The notes under the pieces: model-generated
The model's input: the letters and a program-made list of their open reading frames with translations, nothing else
What the model was told of the DNA's origin: nothing
Database searches by the model: none
Program-made: the position numbers and the translations under genes
Part shown: positions 4,452 to 61,600 of the stretch, piece by piece
Position numbering within the stretch: the first letter of the stretch is position 1
Layout of the letters: each line of letters opens with the position of its first letter
NCBI GenBank assembly: GCA_034521575.1
Contig: JAXHMJ010000002.1
Span: 1,001,089 to 1,065,088, forward strand
Length of the DNA: 64,000 bases
Direction: 5' to 3'
Source: Candidatus Zhuqueibacterota bacterium
GTDB lineage: Bacteria > Zhuqueibacterota > Zhuqueibacteria > Residuimicrobiales > Krinioviventaceae

Positions 4452-7400
4452 ATGAAGAGAGGATGGATAGTAACCCTTGGTGTGATATGCGCGTTGTTTG
4501 CTGTCACACAGCTGAATGCACAGTGGCTGATCTATGATGCCAGTGTGCTTCCGGCTGAAACCGGGACCGGAGAGTACACACTGGATCTCACCAGTGTCAG
4601 TGATAATTCACCGGGCGAAAATTTTGTCGAGGAAATTATTGCTGATCCGGATATTCCCGGTAATCAATTACTCAAGTACCTGCATCCGGACGGCAAAACT
4701 ATGTACCGGTATTACTTTGATGATGCTTACAGCGACTCGGCGTTTACACTTATGGCTCGGGTAAAGGCTGAACGCGATGAAGCCTTTGACCGGGCATTTG
4801 ATCTGCAATGGAGAAACGCCAATGCCGGCAGCCGGGACGAACTGCGCATCTGGCCGGCGGACAGTACTCTCGAACTGGAAAAAGCCGATGTTGAGATCAA
4901 AGTCGATATGGACCTTTACGGATGGCACACCTACCGTATTGCAGTCGATGGCGATAAAGCCACTGTTTACATTGATGAAAATCCGGTTGCTGTGGTCAGC
5001 GGTGTCTCCGGTTCGTCCAGCGGTGATCAGTACATCAAAATCGGCGACGGCTCCGGTGATGCCATAGGCGGATACCTGGACTGGTGCATTCTCGACCCTT
5101 CCGGTGCTTATGCTCCGGGCGAAGGCAATGCCCTGCCTGAAGATCTGTATGTCGAAGGCGCTCAGGAAGAGGTTTCTCCCTGGCTGGTTTATGATGCCAG
5201 TATACTGCCCTCTGAAACACCGACAGCCGAAAATACTCTGGACCTCACCAGCGTCAGTGACAACTCACCAGGAGCAGGATTTGTACAGGAAATCATCGAT
5301 GATCCGGATCTGGCCGGTAACAAACTGCTAAAGTACCTGCATCCGGACGGCAAAACCATGTACCGGTATTACTTTGATGATGCCTATGCAGATAGTGCGT
5401 TCACCCTCATGGCACGCGTCAAAGGCGAACGCGACGCAGCCTATGACCGCGCGTTTGATTTGCAATGGCGCAATGGAAATGCCGGCACGCGCGATGAACT
5501 GCGGATCAGCCCGGAAGACAGCACTCTGGAACTGGAAAAAGCTGATGTTGAGGTCAAGGTCGATATGGACCTGTACGAATGGCATACCTACCGTATCGCG
5601 GTCAACGGTGATGAGGCGACTGTTTACATTGACGAGTACCCGGTCGCCGAGATCAGCGGCGTGTCCGGTTCGTCCAGCGGCGATCAGTACATCAAGATCG
5701 GCGACGGATACCGGCGATGCCATCGGCGGTTATCTGGACTGGTGTATTCTGGATCGTTCCGGCGCTTATGCGCCCGGTGAAGGTTCGGCTCTGCCCGAAC
5801 ATTTAATTGTAGACGGCGGCAACCAGGACGTCCCGCACTGGCTGATCTACGAAGGCAGCGTGTTGCCCGAGAATACCGGCGGTGGCGGTGATACGCTGGA
5901 CATCACCAGTGTCAGCGACAACTCGCCGGGCGCGGATATGGTGCAGGAAATCATTGACGATCCGGACATTGAAGGCAACAAACTGTTAAAGTACCTGCAG
6001 CCCGACGGCAAAACCATGTTCCGGCATTATTTTGATCGAATCTTATGAGGATTCAACATTCACACTGATGATCCGGGTTAAAGGCGAAAACAATCCGGAA
6101 ACCTATGACCGATCCATAGATATTCAATGGCGCAACGGCAATGCCGGTACACGCGATGAACTGCGCATTTTCCCGGCGGACAGTGTACTGGAACTGGAAA
6201 AAGCGGAAACTGAAATCAAACTGCCGGTGGATTTTTACGAATGGCATACATTCAGAATTGTGGTCAACGGTGATGTAGCGACGGTTTATCTGGATGAAGC
6301 TCAGGAACCTGTACTCAGCGGCACTTCCGGGTTCATCGACAGACGCCAAGTACATCAAATTCGGCAACGGCTCCGGCGATGCCATCGGCGGTTATGTCGA
6401 TTGGTGCATTCTGGACACTTACGGGGCCAATGTGCCGGGTGACGGTTTGCCGCTTCCGGGTTATCTTGAGGTTGATCTGGCCGCTCCGCCTGACATTCCC
6501 CACTGGCTGGTTTATGACGCCGGCGTCCTGCCGGGAGAAACCACAGCCGGCGGCGACACACTTGACCTCTCCGATTTCAGTCAGGATTCGCCGGGCGCCA
6601 CATTTGTCGAAGACATTGTGGATGACAATGATATTGAAAACAACAAACTGCTGAAATATCTGCAACCCGACGGTGAACGCATGTACCGCCACTATTTCAA
6701 GGAAGAATTTAAAGATTCCCTGTTCACATTAATGGCGCGCGTGCGCGGTATTGATTCTCCCGCCTATGACCGGGTCTTTGATCTGCAATGGCGCAACGGC
6801 AATGCCAATTCCCGCGATGAACTGCGCATCTGGCCGGAAGACAGCACTCTGGAACTGGAAAAAGCAGGTGTGGAAGTCAAGGTGGACTTGAATCTTTATA
6901 ATTGGCACACCTATCGCATTGTTGTAATTGGTGATTCTGTCGCCGTTTATATCGATGAACGTTCGACTCCATACATCACCGGCGTGTCTACCTCGACCAG
7001 CGACGATAATTACATCAAAATCGGCGACGGGTCCGGTGAAGCCATTGGTGGTTATCTGGATTGGTGCATTCTGAATCTCTATGGAGCAGCAGATCCGGGT
7101 GAAGGTCTGGCTGTTCCCGAAGACCTGTATGTGGATCCCTATATTGCTCCAATTGCTCCCGGCTGGAAAGTGTATGACGCCAATATCCTGCCGCAAATGA
7201 CGGGAAGCGGCGGCGATTCTCTGGATCTCACCAGTATGAGCCAGGATAATCCGGGTCCTGATTTTGTCGAAGAGATCATGGACGATCCGGATGTTCCCGG
7301 CAACAAGATCCTGAAATATCTGCAGCCGAATGGGGAACGTATGTACCGTTATTATTTCCCGGAAGGCTATAGCAAAAAAGCCTATACCATGATGGCGCGG

Positions 7401-8099
7401 ATCAAGGGCGAAAATGATCCGGCTTATGACCGTGTATTCGACCTGCAGTGGCGCAACGCCAACATCGGCAGCCGTGATGAACTGCGTATCTGGGGCGAAA
7501 CCGGTGAATTTGAACTGATAAAATCGGATACCGTTGTAAGCAGCGGTCTGGATATGTATCAATGGCATACTATACGAATTGCCGTTTCCGGAGATACATC
7601 CTGGATCTATGTAGACGAAAATCCAGTGCCGGTTACTATGGGCCTTTCAGGCGAGTCAACCAGTGACAATTACATTAAAATCGGTGACGGCTCAGGTGAA
7701 GCCATCGGCGGTTATCTGGACTGGTGTATCCTTGATCTCTCCGACGCCTATGCGCCGGGTGAAGGTGAACCCTTTCCTGAAGGATTGATCGTGGACGGAT
7801 ATGACACCGGTGTAGCGGAAGAAGCAACGGTACCGGATCAATATGCGCTGGGACAGAATTATCCAAATCCGTTCAATCCCACGACGACGATCGAATTTCA
7901 GCTGCCTCAGGATGATCATGTAACCGTGACCATTTTCAACGCAGTCGGACAGACCGTGACAGTACTGACGGATAAATCCTACAAGAGCGGTGTCCACAAA
8001 TTGACATTTGACGCTGCCCGGTATTCATCCGGACTGTATTTTTACAAAATCAAAACCAACTCGTTCAGCAAAGTCAGAAAAATGATGCTGCTGAAATAA
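4452..8099 (+). CDS. T9SS cargo protein built from five tandem LamG/concanavalin-A-like repeats of about 219 aa each. It is read through three +1 frameshifts at about 5711, 6039 and 6337.
   Basis: RBS AAGGAGGA is followed by ATG 4452 and the signal peptide MKRGWIVTLGVICALFAVTQLNA. Five repeats each contain W(L/K)(I/V)YDA..LP...DLTS.SD.SPG..FV.EI.DD.D..GN.LLKYL.PDG..MYR.YF...DLQWRN.N.G.RDELRI....LELEKA...WHTYRI.V.GD.A.VYIDE...YIKIGDGSGDAIGGYLDWCIL. The WHTYRIAV.GD.ATVYIDE motif matches the LamG jelly-roll fold. The C-terminus NYPNPFNPTTTIEFQLP...GLYFYKIKTNSFSKVRKMMLLK is a T9SS C-terminal domain. The ORF track splits the gene into 4452..5780, 5374..6048, 6032..6442 and 6294..8099. Each junction is a 1-nt insertion that I mapped by aligning the repeats. 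Confidence 0.6.
4525..7800 (+). repeat. Five tandem direct repeats of about 657 bp that encode the LamG-like modules. Repeat units begin near 4525, 5183, 5838, 6500 and 7160.
   Basis: Protein-level periodicity is about 219 aa. Neighbouring DNA units are about 70-80% identical by eye, for example the DLQWRN...YIKIGDGSGDAIGG blocks. Confidence 0.7.
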
Positions 8100-27553: not shown

Positions 27554-28201
27554 TCATAAACTGACCAGCCCCTCCCGGATGGCATATTTCACCAGATCCG
27601 GTATATTGTATATTTTTAATTTATTCATCAAATTTTGACGATGTGTCTCTATGGTTTTAACAGAAACGTATAATTTTGCGGCAATTTCTTTTGTATTGCC
27701 GCCCTCAGCGATTAACTGCAGGACTTCTCTTTCCCGTTCCGTGAGCACATCAAATGCGCTTGTATGCTGACTGTTCAGAATATCACGAAAGTGCTGGACC
27801 ACTGTTCCTGTAATACGGGAACTCAGGTAGGTATCCCCATGGATTACAGTTGTGATGGCCTCTTCCAACTCGTCTACAGCACAATCTTTCAGCAAATAAC
27901 CGCTTGCTCCTGCTTGTAACATCCCTGCAATAAACTGTTTGTCCGAATGTACAGACAAAGCAATAATTTTTATTTCCCCTTCTTTTTCCAGAATTTGGCG
28001 TGTAGCCTCCATCCCGTTCATGCCCGGCATACTGATATCCATAACAATGACATCCGGTTTCAATTCTTCTGCCTTTGTCAAGGCTTCTCTGCCGTCAGAT
28101 GCTTCAGCAATGATGTCAAACTGTTTATTTTCGCTTAAAAGAGACCGTAATCCACTTCTCAGGATCTCGTGATCATCAGCGATCAGTATTGATATCGGCA
28201 T
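27554..28201 (-). CDS. Two-component response regulator of the NarL/LuxR family (REC plus HTH_LuxR).
   Basis: The N-terminus ILIADDHEILRSGLRSLL...DVIVMDISMPGMNG has a conserved Asp. The C-terminus LTEREREVLQLIAEGGNTKEIAAKLYVSVKTIETHRQNLMNKL is a LuxR-type HTH. Confidence 0.9.
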   Translation of the reverse strand: MPISILIADDHEILRSGLRSLLSENKQFDIIAEASDGREALTKAEELKPDVIVMDISMPGMNGMEATRQILEKEGEIKIIALSVHSDKQFIAGMLQAGASGYLLKDCAVDELEEAITTVIHGDTYLSSRITGTVVQHFRDILNSQHTSAFDVLTEREREVLQLIAEGGNTKEIAAKLYVSVKTIETHRQNLMNKLKIYNIPDLVKYAIREGLVSL

Positions 28202-28231
28202 TTTTCCCTCACATGATAGTGCTAACTCTTT

Positions 28232-30079
28232 TTATTGTACACTCGTGGGAACTGATAATGTGACAACTGTGCCTTTGTCAGGTTCAGAGTTTATATCCAC
28301 AGAGCCATCCAGATATGCCATTCGATCTTTGATATTAAACAAGCCGAAACCTCCGGATTCATGCTGTTCCAATTGATCCGGGTTAAAACCCACCCCGTTA
28401 TCACGGATGATTATAATGATTTTACCCTTTTTTTGTTCCAATGAGATTTTTACGTTTTCAGCCTGAGCATGTTTGACAATATTATTGCACAACTCGCGTA
28501 CAGACTGAAACAATACATTTCGAACATCTTCGTGCAGGGATGGAATTTCATTTCGGGCATCGACAATGATGTCCAAATCATATCGATCCGAAAACTCTCC
28601 GGCAAGCCATTCAATGGCGGCTGCAAGTCCCATTTCATACAACACCGGAGGGCTGAGTTCAAAGGTAAGTGTACGTGTTTGATCAATGCTTTCATCGAGG
28701 ATTTCATATATTTGATCAATGTCGGCGTAGGATTCATCATTTGCAAATTTTTTACGCAAAATGCCGGTTTTAATTTTGGCAAGAGCCAAAATTTGTACAA
28801 TTCGATCATGCAGACCGGTCGCGATACGACGTCGTTCCTTTTCTTCAACATGCATCAAATGCATTCCCAGTTTGCGCAGCTGCTGCTGATAGCGCTTGCG
28901 CCGGAACACTTCTTTTTGTAAATCCAGATTGCGTTCCTGGATTTCCATGGTCCTTTCCATCACGCGTTGTTCCAGAGTTTCTTTGGCTTGTACGAGTTCC
29001 TGTTCTTTTTCAATCCAGCCTGTAATATCCCGGGCAATGGATGTTATAACCGATATACGTCCGCGATCATCAAAGATAGGCGAAAAAGTGATGGAAACAT
29101 AAATGTGCGTGCCGTCTTTGCGACACCGAATGGTCTCGTATCCGTCTATTTTCTTGCCACCACAAATAGATAAATAAAGTTCATCGATTGATTGATGCTG
29201 TGATTCAGGTATAATCTTTTTGATGGACTCTCCCAGCATTTCAGGTTCGGAATAACCGTAAATCTGCTGGGCACCGTCATTCCAGCTTTTGATGATCCCG
29301 TCCGGACTCTGGATAATAACCGCATCCCCCGACCGATTGACCAATTCCACCAGTAGCTGCTGTGCGTCCCGATAATTTTTCGGTTCAGTGATATCATATA
29401 CAATTCCGTACATCTTTTTTACATTATGATGCTCATCCCTGACCCAGTCACCGGCTTCATGCATCCATCGAACAGCTCCGTCAGGTTTGACTATTCGATG
29501 TTCCACCTGATAGCGCGTTTTATTTTTTACACTGGATTTCAGTGCATCCAAAAGAACAAATCGATCTTTTTCATGCACGTTTTTAAGAAAGGTTCGGAAA
29601 TTAACATCCGACTGGCGTTCCTGAAATCCAAACATCTCACTCACGGTCTCTGACCAAGTAATATGTCCGGTTTCGATATCCCAGGTCCATGTGCCGATTT
29701 TGCCGGCTTTGAGCGCTTTTGCAAACGGTTCTTCAAACCGGGGTCTTTCGAGCATGACCAAACCAATAGACCCCGGGGAGGGTGAATAAATATTGCAATG
29801 ATATTCCTTCTGGGTTTCTTTATTCAAGTAAATAAAATTATCCTGTTCTCCTTCCCCCAAACGCTCAATAAAAGCATATATATTTTCCGCAATATCCGGC
29901 AACAATTTGGAAAGCGGCTTGCCGGCACAGTCTTTCTGATCAACCGTCTTTTCAAATGCCGGGTTGCAGATATCCACGATGCATTCATTCTTTGTTTCCG
30001 TGTCAGGATCAATATACAGCCACACAACTGCACACGGAAAGGTATCTAAAAAGTTTTTATATTCAATATAATTGGACAT
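28232..30079 (-). CDS. PAS-domain sensor histidine kinase of the HisKA_3/NarX-LiaS type.
   Basis: The protein is 615 aa. It has two PAS-like segments, a coiled coil, an H-box (RRRIATGLHDRIVQILA) and an HATPase_c region (IIIIRDNGVGF...GGFGLFNIKDR). Confidence 0.9.
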   Translation of the reverse strand: MSNYIEYKNFLDTFPCAVVWLYIDPDTETKNECIVDICNPAFEKTVDQKDCAGKPLSKLLPDIAENIYAFIERLGEGEQDNFIYLNKETQKEYHCNIYSPSPGSIGLVMLERPRFEEPFAKALKAGKIGTWTWDIETGHITWSETVSEMFGFQERQSDVNFRTFLKNVHEKDRFVLLDALKSSVKNKTRYQVEHRIVKPDGAVRWMHEAGDWVRDEHHNVKKMYGIVYDITEPKNYRDAQQLLVELVNRSGDAVIIQSPDGIIKSWNDGAQQIYGYSEPEMLGESIKKIIPESQHQSIDELYLSICGGKKIDGYETIRCRKDGTHIYVSITFSPIFDDRGRISVITSIARDITGWIEKEQELVQAKETLEQRVMERTMEIQERNLDLQKEVFRRKRYQQQLRKLGMHLMHVEEKERRRIATGLHDRIVQILALAKIKTGILRKKFANDESYADIDQIYEILDESIDQTRTLTFELSPPVLYEMGLAAAIEWLAGEFSDRYDLDIIVDARNEIPSLHEDVRNVLFQSVRELCNNIVKHAQAENVKISLEQKKGKIIIIIRDNGVGFNPDQLEQHESGGFGLFNIKDRMAYLDGSVDINSEPDKGTVVTLSVPTSVQ

Positions 30080-30134
30080 TGAGTAGTCTTTAGGTATGAA
30101 TCATTACCTTTTAGTATAAACCAGTAACGTCCGG

Positions 30135-30920
30135 TTAGGTTTTTGCACGTAAGTAATTTCGTCGATTTTTTCTATGAGATTTTCTACGATTTTTCTTGTC
30201 GGAATCTCGCACTTCATTTTGAATTTGAATACGGAGTTCTCGCACTCTTTCGATGTTAACTTTTTCGTTATAATTTTCATGACAATAGATTGCCAGCAGC
30301 AAATATGTAATGAGGCCGCCGAGAATTTGAACCATAAGTCCGTACTGACTTCGAGCTATGAGATGATAGACTTTGAGATGGCGTTTCCACCAAGCGAAGA
30401 AATTTTCAATTTCCCAACGAAGTTTGTATGCCTGAGCAACATCTTCTGCAGAGAGGTCATAACGATTTGTCGCGATCCAGTATTTTACATTGCCGATTTT
30501 ATAACCGACAAGTCGTATCGACTTTTTTGTTTGATTGGTGCCCGGCGTCCCCAATAAAACTATAGCATCATAAAAAACAATGCTTTCTGGTTTTATGTCA
30601 TGTGCATAAAGACATATTTTTTTCGTCGATGCTTTGATGCGGCAGAAAAATTGACGACCGTCCTCCTGCCATTGGTCAAAGCGTTTATGGCATTGATAGC
30701 CCCGATCAAGAACGCCGGACTGGTCAGAAGAGAGTATTTGATCGACAAATGGTCGTTCACCGGCTAAACCGCCTGTGAGATATAGTTTTTTTGGAATGGA
30801 CCGATTAATATCAAAACCGAGATGAACTTTTGCCTTTTTAGAGCCGTTTCTATAATCAGCCCAAGTCATTGAAAGAACAGCATCAATCAAAGAACCGTCG
30901 ATGGCAACAAGCTCCCCCAA
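30135..30920 (-). CDS. IS4-family DDE transposase, C-terminal catalytic part (orfB). Its frame is open upstream to the A7 run at about 31034.
   Basis: The DDE_Tnp_1 region includes LVAIDGS, DRGY and WEIENFFAWWKRHLK. The stop lies inside the left inverted repeat. Confidence 0.8.
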   Translation of the reverse strand: MGELVAIDGSLIDAVLSMTWADYRNGSKKAKVHLGFDINRSIPKKLYLTGGLAGERPFVDQILSSDQSGVLDRGYQCHKRFDQWQEDGRQFFCRIKASTKKICLYAHDIKPESIVFYDAIVLLGTPGTNQTKKSIRLVGYKIGNVKYWIATNRYDLSAEDVAQAYKLRWEIENFFAWWKRHLKVYHLIARSQYGLMVQILGGLITYLLLAIYCHENYNEKVNIERVRELRIQIQNEVRDSDKKNRRKSHRKNRRNYLRAKT

Positions 30921-30982
30921 ATGTTCAAATTGCTTTGGGATAGTGGTCGCAGCTTTGGCTTGAAGTTCATTAAAAACAACAG

Positions 30983-31300
30983 CTAGTTGTTCGAGGCCGC
31001 GATTGTTGATAGCCTCAAAAAAGCTACTTTTTTTGATTCCATCTTTCGGGCAATATGCTCCCGAGCAAATGTATCTTCTTGAAGAACCTGGACAAGATGA
31101 GTCCCTGATTCATGCTCTTCAAGATGATAAAACACGAGGGCATTAAGTTGATCTTCAAATGTCATTTGCAGAGGTCGATCTCCTCGTGAAACTAATGGTG
31201 GTACCTTGGACAAGATAGCCTTGATCGGTTCCATTAGTCTTTTGAATGTTTTAGATTTTTGTCGAGGCTTAAACTTTTTGAATTTACGTCGCATTTCCAT
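30983..31300 (-). CDS. IS4-family transposase, N-terminal part (orfA, DUF4372-like).
   Basis: The 105-aa ORF ends 15 codons after an A7 run (plus-strand T7 at 31028-31034) that forms an A_AAA_AAA heptamer in frame 0. The -1 frame then continues without a stop into orfB. Confidence 0.75.
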   Translation of the reverse strand: MEMRRKFKKFKPRQKSKTFKRLMEPIKAILSKVPPLVSRGDRPLQMTFEDQLNALVFYHLEEHESGTHLVQVLQEDTFAREHIARKMESKKVAFLRLSTIAASNN

Positions 31301-31528
31301 AACACCTTATATTTATTAATGTTATGAAAGTCGACTTCAAAATTTTTGACGTAATGTCAAGTGTTTTTCTGTGTTATGTCATATTTTTTTGTATAATCTG
31401 AGCGTTGCAATTACCTAACCGGACGTTACTGAGTATAAACAATTAATCATATAAAATCAAGCAGATTCAATTCATTGCACAGCTATCATACAAAGAGAAA
31501 ATAACAAAAAAGATTTCAAGAGTCCCCT

Positions 31529-31564
31529 AAAAAGACGGGTCCTGTTGCTGTGAACAGGACCCGT
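31529..31564 (-). terminator. Rho-independent terminator of the encapsulin operon.
   Basis: On the minus strand the sequence is ACGGGTCCTGTT cacagc AACAGGACCCGT CTTTTT. It has a 12-bp perfect stem followed by a U-tract. Confidence 0.75.
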
Positions 31565-31575
31565 ACGGCTAAAAT

Positions 31576-32372
31576 TTATTCAAACACAACCACAGCTCTT
31601 GGGTTCAAATACCTGAAATGTAAAAGATTCAGTGTAAAACAACTCGACTTCTTTGCTGTCGTGTGAATGATATCCAAATTGACAAATCAGCGCCCAGCGT
31701 CAACTGAAAATCTTCGCCCCGCTGGGATACCAGAAATACATCGTCGACCTGTGGACTGAGTACAATCTGTCCTCCCAATATCTCTTCAAGCTGACGACGT
31801 ACCGGATAACCACCGGTATAGCTTGAGATTTGCTGCCATTTCTTCGGGTTGACAACCAATGTATAAGGGCCGCCGATTGAGGCATCTTCCAATACCCGAA
31901 TACCCCGAGTCACAACCGCCAGGGCTTCTTTTGCATCTTTGGGGAGTGAAAGCGGCTCGTTTTCCGAAGCTTCTTTCAACCCCTGAATCCGACCTTGTTT
32001 GAAACCGTAATAAATAGCTTGTTCTTCAAATTTTGCGGTGTTTTCAGCAGCTTTTTCCAGAGAATCAAGATCGACATCCCGGGCGCCGCGGATCAGATTA
32101 TCTATTTCCCAAATATTCAGTTTGAACGGCACACGAACTTCAGTCAAAGGAAGCATGCTGAACGTACCAAACTGGACTTGTTTATTGGATTGACCTTTCG
32201 GAATATCAAGACGTCCCAGCGGAATGGCGCCGAAATCCCATCCTTTGGGTCCATCCACATCTACAACTTTACGGGCAGACAGGTTATTTACCAGAACCGC
32301 GCGTGCGGTTTCATCTATTTCTTGCCATGCCTCATCCGTGAGAGGGGCTAATGACCGTTTTAGAATATCCAT
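31576..32372 (-). CDS. Family-1 encapsulin nanocompartment shell protein (Linocin_M18 fold). The 3' end carries two +1 frameshifts (about 31676 and 31595). The uncorrected ORF is 31629..32372.
   Basis: The sequence MDILKRSLAPLTDEAWQEIDETARAVLVNNLSARKVVDVDGPKGWDFGAIPLGRLD... matches the encapsulin N-terminus. After ...GADLSI the annotated frame reads WISFTRQQRSRVVLH*. Skipping one nucleotide at each of two sites instead gives GYHSHDSKEVELFYTESFTFQVFEPKAVVVFE*, which matches the conserved encapsulin C-terminus. Confidence 0.8.
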
Positions 32373-32392
32373 ATAAAAATCTCCTCGAATTT

Positions 32393-32749
32393 TTATGATA
32401 ATTTTCCAATACCCAAATCACTGCCTCCGGATGCTTTAGAGGCATCGTTACCGTTTTCTTCTTCCTCTTCAACTTTTGTAACATCCCGTCCTGTAAACAG
32501 GTATGTACGCAAATGTTCATCCCAGGCCGGGACATTCTGGCGCAGCCATTCCAGGGTCATACAGGCATGTTCGATTTCTTCATCGCGATTGTGTTCAACT
32601 ATATTTTTCAAATGATCATCATTGGTGGTTACAGCGCGTTGATTATACCAATCAACTGCTTCCACTTCTTCTTTAAGGCTATTAAGAGCACGGGTAATAT
32701 TTCGTGCTTGTTCTCCAAGTTCTTCAGGGGGTTCATGATAGTATGACAT
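32393..32749 (-). CDS. Encapsulated ferritin-like protein (EncFtn/Flp), the cargo, carrying a C-terminal encapsulin-targeting peptide.
   Basis: The protein is 118 aa. The ferritin-like helical core (E..H motifs: EEVEAVDWYNQRA...EEIEHACMTLEWL) is followed by an acidic linker and the terminal ...GGSDLGIGKLS*, which matches the GSLxIGxLK cargo-loading consensus. The gene lies 20 bp upstream of the shell gene. Confidence 0.8.
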   Translation of the reverse strand: MSYYHEPPEELGEQARNITRALNSLKEEVEAVDWYNQRAVTTNDDHLKNIVEHNRDEEIEHACMTLEWLRQNVPAWDEHLRTYLFTGRDVTKVEEEEENGNDASKASGGSDLGIGKLS

Positions 32750-32821
32750 AGTTTCTCCTTTTAATTGAATGAATATTTTGTCTTTATAACAAACCAGACC
32801 GCTGTTTTCATCCGCATTGAA

Positions 32822-33151
32822 TCAATTTTGATACAATAGAATAGAAACATTCTCAACGGTGACGAGTCCACCTTTCAGAGCATCCTGAATAATGGGCAAA
32901 AATGCATCAATTTTATCCGGCACATCAATCATTTCAATAACCAGGGGCAAATCTTCGGACAATCTCAAGATTTTTGCATTGTGAACTACGCTTGTGCGCC
33001 CATATCCCAACTGTCCCCGAAGTACAGTGGCTCCTGCAATATGCATTTCTCTGGCTTTATTTACAATCCATTCAAACAAGGGTTTTCCCTCATAGTGATC
33101 AGATTCCGCAATATAGATGCGCAGCAGTTGGCCTTTTTCAGGCAGCGGCAT
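32822..33151 (-). CDS. DUF190 (PII-like) protein of the kind commonly paired with CrcB.
   Basis: The protein is 109 aa. LLRIYIAESDHYEGKPLFEWIV...GATVLRGQLGYG matches the DUF190/PII-like fold. It lies 10 bp downstream of crcB. Confidence 0.7.
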   Translation of the reverse strand: MPLPEKGQLLRIYIAESDHYEGKPLFEWIVNKAREMHIAGATVLRGQLGYGRTSVVHNAKILRLSEDLPLVIEMIDVPDKIDAFLPIIQDALKGGLVTVENVSILLYQN

Positions 33152-33160
33152 ATGTTCTCC

Positions 33161-33553
33161 TTATATCAATCTAGACAAATACAGTCCTGTGTAAACCGCA
33201 AACAGCCCCAGTCCTGCCTGCACTCCGATGTTCAACGCCATCATCAACAATTGTCCATCCCGAAGCAACATTAAAGATTCGTAGGCAAACGTCGAAAACG
33301 TGGTAAAGCTTCCCAATCCACCGACCAATATCAACAACCGGATTTCCGGAGAAAACATTTGTTTCGAGTTGACCAAACCCATGAAAAATCCAATCAGCAG
33401 GCAACCGAGAATATTGACAAACAATGTGCCCCATGGGAAAAAAGACTGGGGAAAGCATTTCTGAATCCATCCACTGGAGAAATAGCGCAAGGCAGCGCCT
33501 AAAAATCCACCGGCTCCGATATATAATAATTTAATCCACACTATAAACTCCAC
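33161..33553 (-). CDS. crcB: Fluoride ion channel CrcB/FluC.
   Basis: The protein is 130 aa with 4 TM helices. Conserved blocks are GGFLGAALRY, GTLFVNILGCLLIGF and GGLGSFTTFSTF. Confidence 0.85.
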   Translation of the reverse strand: MEFIVWIKLLYIGAGGFLGAALRYFSSGWIQKCFPQSFFPWGTLFVNILGCLLIGFFMGLVNSKQMFSPEIRLLILVGGLGSFTTFSTFAYESLMLLRDGQLLMMALNIGVQAGLGLFAVYTGLYLSRLI

Positions 33554-33564
33554 AGCGCTGCAGC

Positions 33565-34459
33565 TTACAATTCCCAGTATTGGGTTTTTCCAAGAAACTC
33601 TTTTTCGAAATGGTTTTTCAAAATTTCAAACGCCTCATCCACATGATCCACGACATCAAACAAGTTTAAATCATCGCGTGATACGACCCCCCAATCGACG
33701 AGTCCCTGAAAATTAATAATTTTCTCCCAAAACTCTTTGCCGTAGATAATTACTTTGATCGACTTTTTCACCTTTTTGGTTTGCAGCAGGGTCAACAGTT
33801 CAAACAGTTCATCCATCGTACCGAATCCACCCGGAAACACAATCAGGGCTTTGGCAAGATAAACAAACCAGAATTTACGCATGAAGAAATAGTGATACTC
33901 AAAGGATAAATTTTCTGAAATATAGGCATTGGGAAACTGTTCAAACGGCAGACTGATATTCATACCAATGGTTGGGCCGCCTGCATCGGCAGCGCCGCGG
34001 TTCGCAGCTTCCATGATTCCCGGACCGCCCCCGGAACAGACAATAAACCTTTTTTTCTCAGCCAGTTGCATAGACCACTCGGTTAAACGCTTTGCCAGCG
34101 CTCTGGCTTCATCATAGTATCGGGATATTTTCAACTCCCTCTCGGCTCTTTGAAGTCTCCTCCGGTTCAGCGCCTTTTTCACGCAGAGTTTTCAGGTTAT
34201 CTGCAGCTTCTTGAGAAGAAACAAGCCGGGCTGACCCATAAAAAACCACCGTGTCTTTGATATCAAAATGACTGAGCCTGCTTTCTGTCTCAAGGTATTC
34301 CGCAAGCATCCGAATCACCCGGGCGTCATTGCTGTTCAGAAATTCACTGTTATGATAAGCACGTGTTAAATGCGGTTTTTTAAAGGAACGGCTTCTTCCG
34401 ATGCGTTTAAACGGACTCTCTTTTTTATGTGGTGAATAAACATCCCGTTCATTGTACAT
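33565..34459 (-). CDS. LOG-family (type II, TIGR00730 Rossmann-fold) nucleotide 5'-monophosphate nucleosidase. The gene is split by a -1 frameshift near 34150-34185.
   Basis: The N-terminal ORF 34112..34459 contains ...DTVVFYGSARL... The C-terminal ORF 33565..34182 contains ...RFIVCSGGGPGIMEAANRGA...GGFGTMDELFE. Together they form one LOG-type protein. The junction lies in an A5 run. Confidence 0.7.
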
Positions 34460-47771: not shown

Positions 47772-50487
47772 TCAGGACAGCATCTGCAGATTCTTTTCCA
47801 GTTTATCAAGATTCATTTCCCAATCGGCTTTTTTCTGGCGTTCTTTTTCAACCACATCTTTGGGAGCCCGGGAAATAAATTTTTCATTATTCAATTTTTT
47901 ATTCAAACCTTCCAGCTGTTTTTCAAGACGTGTCATTTCTTTTCCAAGGCGTTCTTTTTCCATCTTGACATCAATCAAATCAGTTAGGGGCATATACATT
48001 TCCATACCCTGCACCACTGCAGTTGCCGAGAGCTCGGGCCGCTCTGATCCAAAGGATAGGCTCTCCAGACGTGAAAGACGTTTGACAGCAATTTCATTAT
48101 CCTCAATAATCCGCTGTTTTGCAGGATCAGTGATATTCATGACAAGTTCAGCCTGTTTGCCCGGTGGTATATTCATTTCTCCGCGAATATTGCGGACCGC
48201 ACCGATTGTCTGCTGCAGCAATGAAAAGGTTTCTTCAGCAGACGGGTTGATCCAATCATTATCGACTACCGGGTAGCTCTCGTGCATAATGGAGCGTTTC
48301 TCATCGACTGCATGTTCATTGCCGGGAAATGCCTGCCAGATTTCTTCTGTGATAAACGGCATCATGGGATGCAATAGCTTAATACTGCTCTCCATGACAA
48401 AAAACGCAACAGACCGGCCGATTTGCTGTTTGCGCACATCCGAATCATCATAAAAGCGCAATTTTACCCATTCCACATACCAGTCACAAAACTCGCTCCA
48501 GACAAAGCTGTACAAGTCATGTGCGGCATCGTTCAGCCTGAACTCTTTCATAGACCGATCCACATCTTTGATGGTCTTGTTCAGCCGGCTCAGAATCCAG
48601 CGATCCGATAAATCAAATTCATCCTGAGAGATAGATTCCAGAGTTAGCAATTCCTGCGACGCATCCAGATTCATCAACACAAAACGGACGGCGTTCCAAA
48701 GTTTGTTGCAGAACCGCTGACCCAGTTCCACTAAAGTATGATCAAAGTGCACATCTCCACCCAGAGGCGTTGAATACAGCATGGTCATACGCACTGCATC
48801 AGCGCCATAGGCCGGGACTCCGTCTTTAAAAGTCGGATTTTCCGGAATAAAATGCTGCATCTGTTCCGGTTCCGCACCGTCGATCAGCCACAGGGGATCC
48901 GGAGAGTTTCCGAGTGACTTTGACATTTTTTTGCCCTGCAAATCGCGTATCATTCCGTTGAAATAAACATCAGTGAACGGAATATCATCCATAAATTCCA
49001 GAGAAGCCATGATCATACGGGCAACCCAGAAAAAAATAATATCCGGACCGGTAGCCAGTGTATCTGTTGGGAAAAAAGTGTATAGATCCCGAGTATCTTC
49101 CGGCCAGCCCAGGGTGCTGAACGGCCACAGCCAAGATGAAAACCAGGTATCGAGAACATCTTCATCCTGACGCAGTTCTGTACTGCCGCATTCAGCGCAT
49201 TTGTCCGGGGTTTCCCTGGAAACCGTATGATGGCCTTTTTCGCAGTACCAGACCGGAATGCGGTGTCCCCACCATATCTGACGGCTGATACACCAGTCGC
49301 GGATATTTTCCATCCAGTGAAAATAGGTTTCTTCCCAGTGTTTAGGATAAAAACGAATGTTACCCTCGCGCACAACCTTGATAGCCGGTTCAGCCAGAGG
49401 TTTCATTTTTACAAACCACTGGTCGGACAGATAGGGTTCGACAATATCATTAGATCGATAACAGCGCGGTACGGAAATCACTTTTTTCTGTTCACTTTTC
49501 ACCAATCCCAGTTCTGCAAGATCTTTTAATATTTGTTTTCGGGCTTTGAACCGGTCCATTCCTTCATACGCTCCGGCATTCTCGTTCATGCTGCCGTCCG
49601 GTGCAATTACCGATACTTGTTTGAGGTTGTGCCGCTGGCCCACCTGAAAATCATTAAAATCATGTGCCGGAGTGATCTTAACCGCGCCGCTGCCCAGTTC
49701 AGGATCGGCGTGTTCATCGGCAATGATGGGGATATCTCTATTTATCAATGGCAGCTTGACGGTTTTCCCGATAAAGTCAGTATAACGTTCATCTTCCGGA
49801 TGTACGGCAACCGCAGTATCACCCAGCATGGTTTCCGGCCGGGTGGTTGCCACGACAATCTCACCGGAACCATCGGATAATGGATAAGTGAGTTCCCAGA
49901 ATCCCCCGGTTTCCTCCTTGTTATCCACCTCTTCATCAGCCAATGCAGTATGGCAATAAGGGCACCAGTTGATGAGTCGGCGTCCCCGGTATATCAATCC
50001 CTTTTCGTACAAACTGACAAAGACTTCACGTACAGCATTGGAAAGATCTTCATCCACTGGTAAAACATTCGCGATCCCAGTCACAGGAAGCGCCGAGTTT
50101 TCGAAGCTGCTGCAAAATGATGCCGCCATATTTTTCTTTCCATTCCCACACCCGCTCGAGGAATTTTTCACGGCCCAGATCATATCGGGTTTTGTCTTGC
50201 TGCTGTAAGGCAGCTTCCACTTTGTTTTGCGTGGCAATACCGGCATGGTCCGTACCGGGCATCCACAAGGTCTCATACCCCTGCATCTTTTTCCAGCGAA
50301 TCAACAGGTCCTGGACGGTATTGTTCAAAACGTGTCCCATGGTCAGCATACCTGTCACATTCGGAGGCGGTATGACGATGGTAAATGTTGGTTTTTCCGT
50401 ATCCGAATCAGCGTGAAAAAACTTGTTTTTTTCCCAGTATTGATACCACTTGTTTTCAACGTTCTTCGGTTCGTAAACTTTATCCAT
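47772..50487 (-). CDS. valS: Valine--tRNA ligase, split by a +1 frameshift near 50050-50060.
   Basis: The N-terminal ORF 50050..50487 (MDKVYEPKNVENKWYQYWEK...PPPNVTGMLTMGHVLN, the HIGH region) ends ...CDWDRECFTSG*. The 834-aa ORF continues ...DEDLSNAVREVFVSLYEKGLIYRG and includes KMSKS and the C-terminal coiled coil. Skipping one A restores ...CFTVDEDLSNAVREVF. Confidence 0.85.
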
Positions 50488-50781: not shown

Positions 50782-53287
50782 ATGAAAGGGGTTAACATCA
50801 TGAGGTGTAGAGCGTATTCAGGGTTATGGGTAGTATTCTATGTTCTAACTGCTTTTTTTCTGTTCAGCACCACACTTTCGGCCGCTCCGACGGTAAACGG
50901 TTTGTTTTACGGAGATAACGATCAAAGTCAATACCAATTTTTGGCTGAAAATGGCACAGGCCGCGGTACAATGTATTACTACCTTGAGCAGGATGTTTTG
51001 TATATTGCTGTAATTGTAAGTCCCTCCGTAAATGACAATGTGATAGACGATGGGCAAACCGCATATGCAAACAGCGTGGGCTGGACTCCTCCCCACCAGG
51101 CTGAAAAGCTGATTCAATCCGATCATTTGAACTTTACGTTCACAGCAGACGGCGTTTCCTACACCTGGAAACAGGGCTATCTTTATGATGCAGATGGTGA
51201 TAAAAGCCCCTCTGAAGCGGACTGGCTGTCTGACTATCATGACGGCAGTCTGGGAGGCGGAACCCTACCACCCGGACTCGTATCTGCCAGCTCGATGCAG
51301 TGGAATATGAATAACAGTCCATGGGTGAGCACATTCACCGGGACCAGCAATGATTGGAAATCCCCCTATGATCCGGCGAGTCCGAACAGCTTGACGGCTC
51401 CATATGAACTGGGTTATCCGCACTGGGACAGTGTGAACGAGTGGGAATGGGCGATGGTGTATGAAATGAGCATTCCCATAAGCAATTATTCCGGCGCCAT
51501 AACACTGCAGGTAAACAGCGCGCACAATTCTCCTTCCAAAGACGATGAGGAAGACATTCCCATTCCTCCGGTGACACTCACAGATTATGGTGATCTGCCC
51601 AGCCCTTTTCATACGCTGAGCACTGATAATGGAGCCAGTCACTTGATTTTAACAGAAAACAATCCCACTCTGGGCAGTAGTGTGGACGCTGAAAATGACG
51701 GTCAACCTGACGGCAAAGCCAGGGGTGATGACAATAATTACCATGATGATGAAGACGGCATTCAATTCAAATCAGCTGTTTCACCCGATTATGAGGCAAT
51801 ACTTTACGTTACTGTGAAGAATACAGGATACCTGAGCGCCTGGATGGATTTTAACGGCAATGGAAATTTTGATACAGGTGAGCAATTTCTCTCGGATGTA
51901 ACCCTGTCAACCGGCACACACAGTTTAACCTTTACCCCACCGGCGGATGCAGTGACTGGAGTCACGTATGCCCGCTTTCGATACAGCACAGAAACCGGAT
52001 TAACGGCAAATGGTTCAGCTGCAGACGGCGAAGTAGAAGATTACCGGATTGAAATCCTGTCATTGCAATATGTGGATTACGGCGATGCTTTTAGTGATAA
52101 CATTATGAATGTATGGTGGCCGGAAGCCGGGAGAGGCGGTTGACGCAACCCGAGCCTATTTGGGAGACATGGTAGACACAGAGGGCGTATACACCGGTAG
52201 TTTGGCTGCCGATGCAGACGACAATAATGATGATACGAATGATGAAGACGGCATCACCTTTTACCATGATTATAACAATGACGGAATCTGGGTGGAAAAA
52301 ACAGATAATATTTTTGTCAGTAATTATACCTATCAGATCAAAGTCACGGTCAATCTGGGCAGCGGCTATTCAGCTTTATTAGCCGGATGGTTTGATTTCT
52401 CCGCAGACGGTATTTTTGGAAACTTTGACAATGAGATTATTATCAATAACGATCTGTTCCAGAATGGTCTGGGCAAAACGCAACCCGGCGACTTGAGTTT
52501 GGCAAAAACTGCCGCCACATTGACCCGCTACTATACATTTACCGTTCCCGATATTGTTGGCGGAGATTACACCTTTATCCGATTCAGGCTGGACACCTAT
52601 ACTGAAGGTGGTGGACTTTTATCTTCCGGATTTGGCGCGGGATACGGCGAGGTCGAAGATTATTACGCCACTCTGGATGATACACCGCCGGTCTCTAGCC
52701 AATTAACCTCATTCGAGGCGGAACAATCGGAAAAAGGCATCCGCTTATTCTGGAACTATGAAAACCTGCAGAACCTTGTAGGGTTCAATGTGCTGCGAAG
52801 CGTTGAAGAAGCAGGTCAATATAACCAAATCAACAAGTCGCTCTTGTTGTGCCTGGAGCCAAACCCGCAGTCTTTTACTTTTACGGATTATGATATCCTG
52901 AAAAATAAAAACTATTTTTACAAACTTGAGGCGCTCGATCTGAACGGTAAAAGCACCCTCTACGGTCCGGTTTGCGCTGCATGGAACACGGGAATTGAAG
53001 AGATACCGGAAAATTATAAATTCGTGGATAATTATCCGAATCCCTTTAATTCAAATACCTGGTTTGAATATGTACTGGCCTCTGCAGGGCATGTCAAATT
53101 ACGTATCTATAATATAAAAGGCGAACTCGTCAGGACTCTGGTTGACTCGCATCAATCAAAAGGATCGTACAAGCTGAAATGGAATGCAGAAAATGATAGA
53201 GGCCGATTCGTACCGACAGGCATTTACATCTATCAATTCCAATGCGGCGACTATGATAAAACAGGCCGTATGTTGTATATGAAATAA
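50782..53287 (+). CDS. T9SS cargo protein containing GEVED domains. The gene is split by a +1 frameshift near 52125-52140.
   Basis: The N-terminus is a signal peptide (alternative start ATG 50800). The motifs GEVEDYRIEIL (ORF1) and GYGEVEDYYATLDD (ORF2) are GEVED-type. The C-terminus DNYPNPFNSNTWFEYVL...GIYIYQFQCGDYDKTGRMLYMK is a T9SS C-terminal domain. ORF1 50782..52143 and ORF2 52109..53287 overlap in adjacent frames. Confidence 0.65.
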
Positions 53288-55692: not shown

Positions 55693-58600
55693 TTGGAGGA
55701 TTCTTTGCAGAGTTATAAAAGAATATTCATTCTGGTCATTATCCTGATTTTACCTGCTTTTGCATATTCCAAGACGTGGAAAATAATGCCGGTGGGTAAT
55801 TCGATCACTGCCGGTGAAGGCAGCAGCTCGGGCAACGGATATCGAGACATATTATACAACAACCTGAGTAATTCCGGATACGATATCGAGTTTGTCGGCC
55901 CCAACGGTGCGCCCTATAACGGTTTTTATCAGAGTGGCGCCAAAATCGATCAATTCTTGCCCGGAGGTTCGCTCAATATTACCGGACAGCTCAACACCTA
56001 TTTCCCGGACATTGTCCTGGTTATGCTGGGAACCAATAACACGGGAAAATGATGCTCCGGGGCCCTATACCAATCCAGCTACAATGGCCGGGAAAATGCA
56101 GACTTTGCTGCAGAACATAGCTCAGCATCAGAGTGTCCGTTATATTCTTGTATGTAAAATCATCCCCAAAATTGTTGAAGGGGAAGCGGAACCCAAGATT
56201 CGTGAGTACAATGCTGAACTTGAAAAAATGTTTTTTGACAATCCGCCCAGTGACAATATTACAGTTGTTGACATGTACTCTGCAGTTACTCTCAGTCAAT
56301 TAACTGACGGTGTGCACCCAAACAATACCGGATATCAAAACATGGCCCTGCGTTATGAACAGGCCATTTCGGATTTAATTGACGAAACGAATCCTGACGA
56401 TAATCCGCCGTCCCGGATCGCATGGAAGCAAGGCTATTCGATTAATTCACAAAGCATTCGACTGGAATGGTTTGCACCCAGCGATGACGGCGCCGCCCGC
56501 TCTGCGAACATTTACGAATTGCGTTATGCAACATTCAATCTGAATGCTTCCAATTTCAAGCAGGGAAAACTGGTCTCTGTCGGGAAACCCGGGGCGCCGG
56601 GTTCTGTTCAAAAAACAGATGTTACAAATCTGCTGCCGGATCAGTCTTATTTCTTTGCAATTCGCGCATGGGATGCGTCAGGCAATGTCGGGCCGTTATC
56701 CGAGAGCATATTTGTAGAGACCAGTGTTGCAGGAATTGAGTATTGTACCGATTTTGGAGACCCTGATTTACCGGACTGGTCCGCCTCGCCTCAGTATGAG
56801 GTTGTGGATTCCAATCTGGTGAACTCTCAATCCGGCGCCCGGCTGGACAGACCTGGCGGTTTACACCTCCACTGCCTACAGTCCGAATGCCTCATCGGTT
56901 GATGCCTCTTTCACCTGGTCAAATTTAGTGGACAATGACGGTATCAACTCAAGCGGTATTGCAATGCTCCTGAACAATCCCGTTTACAGCGAAGCGGACG
57001 GATATCTGGTCCGGGTTCGAAACCGCAGAATTTATCTTGAGATCATTCAGAACGGACAGGCGCAAGCCGGGGTATTAGACTCTGACGATTTTTATAAAGA
57101 CGCTCCTTCTCCCACTCAGGGGGATGAACTAAAGGTTCAATTTTCTTATGATATTTCGTTGGGCAATGTGTTCAATGTGTATCTGGAAAACACCTGGATT
57201 GGTCAGGTCAATGATGTGAACAATTTGCAGGGAAATGCACAGCGTCTTTTCTCCGGCGTTATGCTTTACGGTGGTCAAAACAATGACATTTCCAGCTTTT
57301 GTGTGGCTGTGCCACCTCTCAACGCTTATACTATGAATATTCATACGGGAAACAATGAAACCGGCCAGGTCGATGAAAAGCTTGCCATTCCCCTGGCTGT
57401 TCAGATCACTGATGTCAACGGACAAGGAATTGCCAATGTACCTGTCCAGTTTAATGTAATTTCAGGCAGTGCATTTTTAAGCACAGACTCGATTGGTGAT
57501 ATTTTTGACGGCAACATTTGGTATGAGGCGGAATCCGGCATTCTCGAACAGCCGATGAGTAGTTCCAGTTCATCAACGGCTTCCAATGGAAAGTATATTC
57601 TCGTGCCCAATATCAGCAATGCCAATAACCGGGGTAAAGCGTATTATCGCATTTTCATCCCCAAAACCGATGCCTATGCGCTTTGGCTGCGCGTTGCTGC
57701 TCAAAGCCCCATTGCAAACTCGGGATATATCGCCGTCGGAGACACGTCGGAAGCCGCAAGATGGAATTTCAAAGTAACAGAGGACTGGAAATGGTACCGT
57801 TGGGATCAAAGCTGGGTTCTTGAAAACGGCTTTCTTGATTTCGCCATTAAAAACCGTGAAGCCAACACCTGGTACGACAAAGTACTCTTTACATCCAATT
57901 CCGGCTATACCCCGACCGGCGCCGGCGGCAGCAATCAGGAATTTTCCAATATCACCAATATATCCGGTTTTGCATCGACTCAGGTCACTTTTGGCAACCA
58001 GGCAGAGACTGTAGAAATTGAAGCTTATGCACCGCTTGTCCGAATAACAACCGACAGGTGTTTACATTGACGGTAAATGCAGGCGATCCCAACCAGATGG
58101 CCCGGACCTCAGCATCGACCATAACCGGAAAAGCAGGTGAACTGCTTTCCGAGCCGTTTTCAGTGTCATTAGAGGATAAATACGGCAATCAATGTTCAGG
58201 TGTTAAAGTAAGATTTACGGTCCAGGAAGGGGACGGGACATTTAATAACCGTCAGCAGATTGATGTTTATTCTGATCAGGACGGCAATGCCGAAGTGCTG
58301 TTTAAACTCGGATATCGGGAAGAAAGTATTGTACAGGCCTTTCTTCCGGACTTTCCGAATATACCATCTCTTGAATTCCGCGCTGTTGCGGGTGAAGGAA
58401 TTCCTGTGGCCATAGAGGAACTTGGCGGGAACAATCAAACCGCGCGGGTAACCGAGGCGCTGCCTGAATCCTTGTCCATCAAGATCACTGATGAGAATGG
58501 CAATCCGGTTGAGAATTTTCCGGTGCCGTTTGAACTCATTTCCGGCAACGGCACCATTGACGGCGAATACCCTGTGCGCGTAGATACAACCAACGCAAAT

Positions 58601-61600
58601 GGTATCGCCACGGTCAGAACAACACTTGGCGATACAGCAGGCACCAACATTCATAAAGTACAGGTTGCCCCAAGCGTACCGCTGGATAACGCCCCCATCA
58701 TTTTTAACGCGACAGCGCTGCCGGATGCCCCTTATCAGATTGTCAAAGAATCCGGTGAAGCGCAGACAATTGGCGCCGGGCACACCTTTCACGAACCTCT
58801 AATTGCCCGAATTGTCGATCAATACAACAATGGCATTCCGGAGCACAACCTTGAATTTTATGTGGTCAACGGAGACGGTAACTTTGAACAAAAAGTAGGC
58901 ACTTCAACGGTCGATGCAGACACTGTTTTGACCACGGATGAAACCGGTCGTGTGGAATTGCTGTACACAGCCGGGACCATTGTCGGCAATCACCAGATCC
59001 GGGTTGACGGTGATCCGAAGATTGAGCAGGGATATCGAATTTTTAATCTCAACGTCACTCAGCCGATCCCGCATCGAATCGTAAAAATGTCCGGCGACGC
59101 CCCGCTACAGGCGGAAACTGTCGGATCATTGCTGGCCAAACCCTTTAATGTAAAAATATTAAATGCTTTTGGCAATCCGATTGGAGCCGGCACAGACGTG
59201 GTATTCAAATCCGATCGGGGTAACGGAAAGTTTTACGGTTCAGATTCTGTGATACGGCAAACGGATGCAAATGGCATTGCTTCCGCCCAGTTTACACTGG
59301 GCACAGAGTCAGGCATTCAGACTGCGATTATTTATGTTAAAGGATACAGCAATGTACAAGCCGTGGAATTTAGAGCACAGGCGAATCCTGCCGCTCCATA
59401 CAGAATAATAGCAGACAGTCCCACCGGCTTTGAGGCCAGGGCCGGACAGGGTCCCATTCAATTGCGGGTTTCAAATTTTGGATCAATTTGAAAATCCAAG
59501 ACCGGGACAAAAGGTGACCTTTAGTGTGGGTACAGGGCAACGGACATTTTTCCAACAATTCAACCGTTCGCACCATCGTATCTGACAGCGTTTCAGGCAG
59601 CGCGGTTGTGGACTATTATATGGGTGAAAGCACGGAAACACGCAATATCATTCATGCCGCAGGTCGTTAAGGAAAACAACCAACCGTTGAACGGCAGCCC
59701 TGTCGAATTCCGCGGTACAGTAAAACCGGAAGCACCGGCATCCCTGATCAAACTGCACGGAGATGATCCGATTCAGTCAGCGCCTGTGATGACCATCGCG
59801 CCGGATTCATTTGCAGTGGCTATATTGGATAAATATAATAATCCTGTGCCCAATACAGAAGTGTTGTTCACAGTCACCGGTTCCAATGGTTCTCTGGAAG
59901 GAATGCCTCAAATCACCAAAGTCACCAATTCAGCAGGAGCCGCATGGACCTGGTTAAATCTCGGAACCCATGCTGCTTTATATTCGGATAGCGTACAGGT
60001 GAGTGTCCCCAATATTCCCGATATATCACCCGTGGAATTTGTGGCCACAGCAGAATCCGGCCAGCCGAATCGCATTTACGCGGTTGGGGACAGCAGTTGG
60101 CAGCAGCCCATAGGCCAAACTCAGAAGATATTCCAGCCCGAGGTCAAAATCGTTGACACCTACAACAATCCTGTCATCAACTATGATGTAAACTTTGCAA
60201 TTCTTCAGGGCAGCAGCAGTGTGGACAACAAACAGTCTATTGTCAAGCAAACCAATGATGATGGTATAGCGCAAGTGACATGGCGACTGGGTAACACGCC
60301 TTCGGAACATATTCTGGAAGCGAGCGCTGCGCTCAATTCTGTACCCCTCAACAATTCTCCCGTACGCTTTAATGCTGTTACGGTCACCGGCGCTCCCAAA
60401 TATATTTCGCTTATCAATACGCCGGGAGATACATTGACAGCCGGTCAGAGTATTCCAATTACGCTACGCGTGACGGATACTGCACAAAACCCCATTGCCA
60501 ATCATCCGGTACACCTCAGTGTAACCCATTACAACAGTGACGATGAACACGCGGTATTTGTGGTTGACGGCAAGCTGTATCACCGAAATCACGATCCGTA
60601 CCGATGCCAACGGTTATGCAAACGCCGGATTTATGCCGATTCTTGAAGACAACCAAATTAAAATCCGCTCTTATGATGCAAACAACGCGCCGTTAGACCC
60701 CTCGCCCATCAATCTGTTTGTCTGGGGTATTCCAACACAGGCAAAGCGAATGGAATTGGTATCGGACAGGCAGCATACTGTGGTGGCGGGTCAGCCGCTT
60801 ACGGTGCGGGCCGCGGCTTATGATGCGTTGACAGGCGGAAACCGTATTGACGGACATCGTATCCAGTTTTCAATTCTGGAAGGCGACGGATATCTGCAAT
60901 CTTCAAATTACAGTTTCAGTACAAAAAAAACGACGCAGGGTGAAGCGAGAGAAACCTGGTTTGTCGGTCACAAAACGGATGAACTGAATATCCTCGAATT
61001 AAACGGAGGATCAATACCCGGGTCACCCGATTCAGTTTTCGTTAATGTGCTACCCACCTCACCGTCAGCAGATTCCTGTTCGATCACTTTTTCCGGACAG
61101 TTAAAATCTGATGAGAGTACCTCCGCACAGATCCATGTGACTCTGGTAGATTCATTCGGCAACCCCATTCCGGGTAAAGACATCGAACTGATTGCTGTTA
61201 GCGAGGGCGCAAGTTTTAATCAACCCGAAGAATCTACGAATGATAAGGGAAAAACAATGGGCAAAGTGAAAGCCTCGATTGTTGGCTCCTTAAAAATCAC
61301 TGCATTTGTTCCGGATTATCCATCGCTGAAACTGGACACCATTGCCATTCCGGTCAAACCCGGTCAAGCGTCTCAATTGGCTCTGGTTAATGAAAGCAAT
61401 CAGTTTGTCGGCAACAAGGGCGCCGTTCTGAAAGACTCTCTTGCCGTGATGGCTAAAGACAAAAATGATAATCCCGTGCCGCATACCAACATCAAGTTTG
61501 AACTCAAAACCGGCAACGGGTACTTTGTCGAAAACCGGCAAAAACTTTATTATGAAATGGCCGATTCCAGCGGTATTGCAGCGGTGCATCTTGTCATGGG

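Follow-up and report, generated by a model that had tools for sequence, protein, structure and literature searches.

The IS element at 30122-31431 of the window, the 64-kb stretch of DNA analyzed here, is best read as an ordinary copy of an approximately 1311-bp IS4Sa-like insertion sequence, which would encode a single DDE transposase of 386–388 aa between 19-bp inverted repeats. The split of its transposase gene into orfA and orfB is no designed feature. It comes from a run of four C residues on the coding strand that reads as three C residues at 31048-31050, and the heptanucleotide A run further downstream is in frame in the intact copies. We slightly prefer the explanation that this is an ordinary IS4-family copy whose missing C is an indel error in the consensus sequence, a reading we would give an even chance.

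Overall structure of the element

The element is 1310 bp long, and with the target duplications it spans 30113-31440. The features discussed in the text are listed in Table 1. A repeat search located the 19-bp inverted repeats (CAGTAACGTCCGGTTAGGT) that had been claimed, with no mismatch between them, and the repeats stretch to 26 nt at 92% identity. When up to three mismatches are allowed, the 19-mer is found at just these two sites in the 64-kb window, while 0.01 sites are expected in shuffled sequences; the match is therefore not random and the window holds one copy of the IS. The perfect 9-bp target-site duplication is present as well, and all nine positions are identical in the two copies. 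The kinase-proximal copy of the duplication includes a -10-like TATACT. The TAA stop codon of the transposase (30135-30137) falls within the right inverted repeat. In the proposed course of events, the IS would have entered an AT-rich site between the encapsulin and kinase genes by cut-and-paste, duplicating 9 bp.

Table 1. Positions of the element, its flanks and the neighboring genes in the window
Feature	Position	Strand	Basis or remark
Response regulator, receiver domain and GerE/LuxR helix-turn-helix	27554..28201	-	domain search
PAS/PAS-HisKA_3-HATPase sensor kinase	28232..30079	-	100% identical to MDZ7722673.1 (KSB1 MAG, 1.17-Mb contig)
Target-site duplication, kinase-proximal copy	30113..30121	.	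AGTATAAAC on the plus strand, GTTTATACT on the minus strand
Right inverted repeat (transposase 3' end)	30122..30147	-	core 19 bp at 30122-30140 perfect
IS4-family DDE transposase gene, split into 105 aa and 261 aa	30135..31300	-	ORF and profile searches
A7 run (T7 on the plus strand)	31028..31034	-	in intact copies native in-frame ATC AAA AAA AGT (I K K S)
Actual frameshift site	31048..31050	-	coding-strand C3, C4 in intact copies (GCC CCG, Ala84-Pro85)
Left inverted repeat (transposase 5' end)	31406..31431	-	core 19 bp at 31413-31431 perfect
Target-site duplication, distal copy	31432..31440	.	9/9 identical to 30113-30121
Sigma-70-like site TTGATT-17-TATACT	31432..31460	-	sigma-70 scan; -10 is the distal duplication copy
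Intrinsic-terminator-like hairpin after the encapsulin gene	31535..31564	-	12 pairs, then CTTTTT

The insertion had been called recent from its perfect repeats and its perfect duplication together. Only the second of these arguments stands. Another element, in contig L021, has 75% protein identity to the window copy and exactly the same 19-bp ends. Because ends are identical in elements that are 25% apart in protein, perfect inverted repeats are uninformative about age; these repeats appear to be conserved by function. What does argue for a young insertion from an active lineage is that all nine duplicated positions agree and that an intact copy from a different assembly is 99.3% identical.

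In the 5' leader of the IS, a palindrome TTGAC-N5-GTCAA at 31346-31360 overlaps the hexamer TTGACA. The hexamer is conserved in L021, the palindrome is not. The hexamer or the palindrome could be the -35 element of a putative transposase promoter, or a putative binding site.

The transposase belongs to the IS4 family

The joined protein matches Pfam DDE_Tnp_1 (PF01609) with 65 bits (8.5e-18) and NCBIfam NF033592 (transpos_IS4_1, IS4 family transposase) with 194 bits against a cut-off of 115. With one C restored, the gene becomes a 388-aa ORF, and the Y-(2)-R-(3)-E-(6)-K signature YKLRWEIENFFAWWK is found in it at residue 292 (Y292). In an alignment of 14 sequences Glu299 and Lys306 are invariant and Arg295 is near-invariant. 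These matches bear out the IS4-like assignment of the original prediction. The second ATG (31294) is the start in most homologues. A search of about 5.8 billion proteins returned 5117 matches, and the 120 listed are all unsplit, with lengths of 333–404 aa (mostly 385–388) and identities down to 63%. Among the matches listed, several are named IS4 family transposase, one of them from candidate division KSB1. No solved structure matches the transposase at E<=1 in a PDB sequence search.

A transposase gene that has no frameshift is among the features by which the IS4 family is defined (De Palmenaer et al. 2008, PMC2266710). No frameshift is found in any of the 120 listed homologues or in the 11 DNA copies, and the window copy departs from them by a one-base loss only, compared with a 99.3%-identical intact copy. 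The family is also marked by terminal inverted repeats and a target duplication of about 10 bp (7–13); both are found here, the duplication being 9 bp. Members of the IS4Sa subgroup are 1150–1750 bp long, end in CA------T and make direct repeats of 8–10 bp (PMC2266710, Table 1). The present elements have 1310–1313 bp, ends CAGTAACGT with T at position 9, and a 9-bp duplication. Judged on sequence, the element is a member of the IS4 family and passes every family test run. Its size, ends and duplication length fit the IS4Sa subgroup, a placement that is based on these DNA features rather than on clustering of the transposase with reference elements.

The resemblance to IS4Sa elements thus covers the single DDE transposase, the Y-(2)-R-(3)-E-(6)-K signature, the size, the ends and the duplication, and the intact relatives of the window element are likewise without frameshift (PMC2266710). 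In protein sequence the named elements are distant. The nearest named relative is a plasmid-borne IS4Bsu1-family transposase with 31% identity, and annotated plasmid-borne IS4 transposases share only about 30% identity with the window element, which, unlike the named IS4 relatives, has an uncultured host of candidate division KSB1. IS10 and IS50 (of Tn10 and Tn5) have in common with the window element the hallmarks of the family, a 9-bp target duplication, a single transposase ORF and, presumably, cut-and-paste transposition. The ends are CT/CW in their subgroups (PMC2266710, Table 1) and CA in the window element, in which a sigma-70 scan found no pOUT-like outward promoter.

The reading frame breaks at a C run

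Elements of the IS1/IS3 type use programmed -1 frameshifting at runs of six or seven A residues. The window copy shares with them, superficially and in this one copy alone, an orfA/orfB layout with an A7 run in the overlap. The T7 on the plus strand and the split into two ORFs in -1 offset are both present as first described: a 105-aa ORF is found at 30983-31300 and a 261-aa ORF at 30135-30920, the latter remaining open further upstream. The break itself is not at A_AAA_AAA. The lesion is a missing C, seen as G3 on the plus strand, and it sits 13 nt upstream of A7 on the coding strand. Thirteen aligned homologues read ...REHIAP-x-x-GI-x-KSS... across the site, and the closest of them read ...REHIAPKDGIKKSS...; PKDGIKK, just upstream of A7, is encoded in the 'orfB' frame.

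The DNA of the closest relative (protein P0001, locus L001, GCA_964493745.1) defines the lesion exactly. Over 1311 bp it differs from the window copy by eight substitutions and a single gap (99.3% identity). The gap lies at ATTG-CCCGAAAG in the window and ATTGCCCCGAAAG in L001, that is, one C of a C4 run is missing, and the window copy is one base short (1310 versus 1311 bp). The ORF of L001 is intact and has the same A7 and an identical GGAATCAAAAAAAGTAGC. An undercalled A8 had been proposed as the fallback explanation; the intact L001 also has A7, and there is no gap at that position. Of this fallback, the general notion of a sequence error fits with the indel-rich window, but the error, if it is one, is not at the A run.

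Ten further DNA copies (L012-L021) all have continuous ORFs in elements of 1311–1313 bp. A7 is kept in frame in L001 and L013-L018, while it is replaced by AAGAAAAG in L019 and L020, by CAGAAAAG in L012 and by AATAAAAG in L021. Contrary to a slippery-site reading, the comparison at the A run thus gives single intact ORFs with either A7 or a substituted run. Because distant copies replace it with other sequence, A7 is not a conserved slippery site. From these alignments we take A7 to be ordinary Lys-Lys coding sequence that is unconserved, and we reject programmed slippage as a design feature. An orfA/orfB split with an A run in the overlap is no evidence of programmed frameshifting unless relatives share the layout. 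Here the relatives have neither a conserved slippery run nor two ORFs as their normal layout; they differ from the IS1/IS3 type in having a single ORF, with A7 in frame and unconserved, and the break in the window copy lies elsewhere.

Programmed -1 ribosomal frameshifting or transcriptional slippage at A_AAA_AAA, joining orfA and orfB as in IS1/IS3-like elements, is hardly credible. It is true that the orfA frame of the damaged copy happens to read A7 as A_AAA_AAA, within a stretch of about 40 codons that is open in both frames, and that an occasional slip at this run would recover the frame after the lost C at the price of five altered residues, RKMES for PKDGI. These altered residues would include Pro85, Gly88 and Ile89, which are near-invariant among the aligned homologues. 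The same A7 is in frame within a single ORF in intact relatives, other members have AAGAAAAG, CAGAAAAG or AATAAAAG in its place, the 120 listed homologues are all unsplit, and the IS4 family is defined by the lack of a frameshift (PMC2266710). Fusion of the two ORFs at A7 was also tried in the 13-homologue alignment, and it gave five mismatches (RKMES versus PKDGI) just before the run.

Other copies of the element

One further copy may be in the host itself. MDZ7723791.1, which clusters with P0001, is an IS4 family transposase from a KSB1 MAG (2.62-Mb contig) and reads an unbroken ...REHIAPKDGIKKSSFFEAINN. From accession proximity and organism name only, we infer that it belongs to the same genome as MDZ7722673.1, the kinase of the window; if it does, the host has at least one further copy, in frame at the site.

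The copy in L021, on a 52.9-kb contig, is flanked by a perfect 9-bp duplication (ATTTAAAAT). No target duplication was found at the IS in six short metagenome contigs that run through both flanks (L001, L012, L013, L015, L019 and L020). These short contigs are probably collapsed or chimeric joins across the repeat, and they were left out of the estimate of duplication length.

Assembly error or mutation

Loss of one C from a C4 run is a classic artefact of unpolished long-read assembly. True frameshifts in IS copies are common as well, and homopolymer runs are natural hot spots of mutation. Other genes in the window bear on the choice. The essential valyl-tRNA synthetase gene (47772-50487, minus strand) is split into two ORFs with the break near 50080-50100; positions 1-134 of the Pfam tRNA-synt_1 profile are in 50050-50487 and positions 135-413 are in 47772-50276. 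Comparison with the usual ...FTMDE... motif suggests that a G was inserted, at ACCA[G]TGGATGAA. The 3' end of the encapsulin gene (Linocin_M18; 31588-31700, minus strand) has two single-base insertions near 31590-31690 compared with its 264-aa orthologue in contig L011; as called, the encapsulin ORF has 247 aa and its C-terminus is garbled. A GDSL-like lipase (55693-56902, plus strand) is found as two overlapping ORFs that match profile positions 2-76 and 73-177. Together with the megabase size of the MAG contigs, such errors point to a long-read assembly that was left unpolished. The frameshift in valyl-tRNA synthetase in particular is strong evidence of assembly indel errors, and frameshifts in this assembly, that one included, should be treated as probable indel errors.

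Several more same-strand overlapping ORF pairs are candidates for breakage by indels. They are located at 33565-34459 (minus strand, LOG/SLOG-family protein) and at 50782-53287, 59606-62815 and 5374-8099 (all plus strand, GEVED/T9SS-tail and Big_1 repeat proteins).

We put assembly error as the cause of the missing C at an even chance or marginally above, and in that case the element would be intact and active. Two observations speak against it. About five verified frameshifts in 64 kb correspond to about 0.1 expected in a 1.2-kb ORF, and every other indel verified in the window adds a base instead of removing one. Alternatively, the deletion of this one base is real; the element and its insertion would be the same, and this copy would be a transposase pseudogene. 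We consider this a serious possibility, somewhat short of an even chance. The eight substitutions compared with L001 give divergence time for an indel, the homopolymer is a hot spot for mutation, the chance of an assembly error in the 1.2-kb ORF is just about 0.1, and the MAG to which the window seems to belong contains an apparently intact copy. On the other hand, frameshifts in the window also hit genes that must be functional, valyl-tRNA synthetase among them, the inverted repeats and the duplication are perfect, and the ORF has no second lesion. Even with a real deletion, the perfect ends could still let an intact copy elsewhere in the genome move the element in trans. Our slight preference is for the assembly error.

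The kinase operon and the encapsulin neighborhood

The IS is inserted upstream of a sensor kinase gene that is followed by a gene for a LuxR-type response regulator. The transposase, the kinase and the regulator are all on the minus strand, which agrees with the common orientation claimed for the IS and the operon. The claimed distance of 43 bp needs a small adjustment: there are 43 positions from the IS end at 30122 to the kinase ATG at 30079, and 42 nt lie between them. An orthologue with 67% identity, starting MSNFIQYK, confirms the start codon of the kinase. On the other side of the IS, the hairpin after the encapsulin gene bounds the intergenic region that holds the insertion.

The Logan contig L011, which has the 67%-identical kinase, carries in order CrcB, DUF190, EncFtn, encapsulin, a 379-bp spacer, the kinase and the LuxR-type regulator, and continues with a second regulator and Usp. 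Gene order is the same in 27554-33553 of the window and 1-7694 of L011, except that Usp in the window has no second regulator before it. The 379-bp spacer between encapsulin and kinase in L011 has no IS, so that the IS of the window must have entered a conserved encapsulin-kinase intergenic region. The intergenic DNA of L011 does not align with the reconstructed empty site, and a search for kinase orthologues in genome and metagenome contigs gave nothing above 41% identity and no empty site from a close strain. Conservation of this order is a hint of a functional link between the two-component system and the encapsulin-ferritin cargo system.

Possible effect on expression of the kinase

A sigma-70 scan found two sites, fewer than the 5.0 expected in shuffled sequences, and the consensus may not apply to KSB1 promoters. 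The TTGATT-17-TATACT site at the distal duplication is weakly predicted to be the native kinase promoter, and no forward-strand promoter-like counterpart was found in the spacer of L011. If it is the native promoter, the IS would have landed between the -35 and -10 elements of a promoter located 33 nt ahead of the kinase start codon. In its complete form this promoter would now fire into the IS, and the -10 element alone would be left beside the kinase. The same scan found no sigma-70-like site on the minus strand of 30080-30480, where KSB1 rules may also differ.

The insertion would cut the kinase off from anything more than 42 nt upstream of its ATG. The coding strand of the IS shows no terminator-like site, so that transcripts starting either upstream or at the transposase promoter could still read through into the operon. 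We accordingly regard transcription across the IS only as the probable route if the operon is still expressed.

Activation or rewiring of the kinase and LuxR regulator operon by the IS, through an outward promoter, a hybrid promoter at the right end or strong read-through, is unlikely. In its favor, the IS and the operon point the same way with only 42 nt from the IS end to the ATG, the stop codon of the transposase falls within the inverted repeat with no minus-strand terminator-like site between transposase and kinase, and the -10-like TATACT is kept in the proximal duplication copy. However, the scan gives no -35/-10 pair at the outward end, and the terminal repeat has no properly spaced -35 for an IS-borne outward or hybrid promoter. 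By eye, the hexamers 16–18 nt upstream of the proximal TATACT (ACCTAA, AACCTA and AAACCT) match TTGACA in at most one of six positions. The sole promoter-like site with both elements lies before the IS and is aimed into it, and transposase promoters are generally weak. A combined scheme is less probable still: the kinase/LuxR pair, syntenic with the encapsulin-ferritin operon, would be rewired to read-through from the displaced and transposase promoters, and low-level slippage at A7 would rescue the transposase.

Implications for the IS4 family

With the frameshift reading explained away and the regulatory part being speculation, the insertion matters little beyond annotation. The element appears to be a further IS4-family member in a poorly sampled phylum. 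It is abundant, with more than 5000 related metagenome proteins and the same 19-bp ends across about 25% protein divergence, and it is a candidate for registration as an IS4-family element of KSB1-like bacteria.
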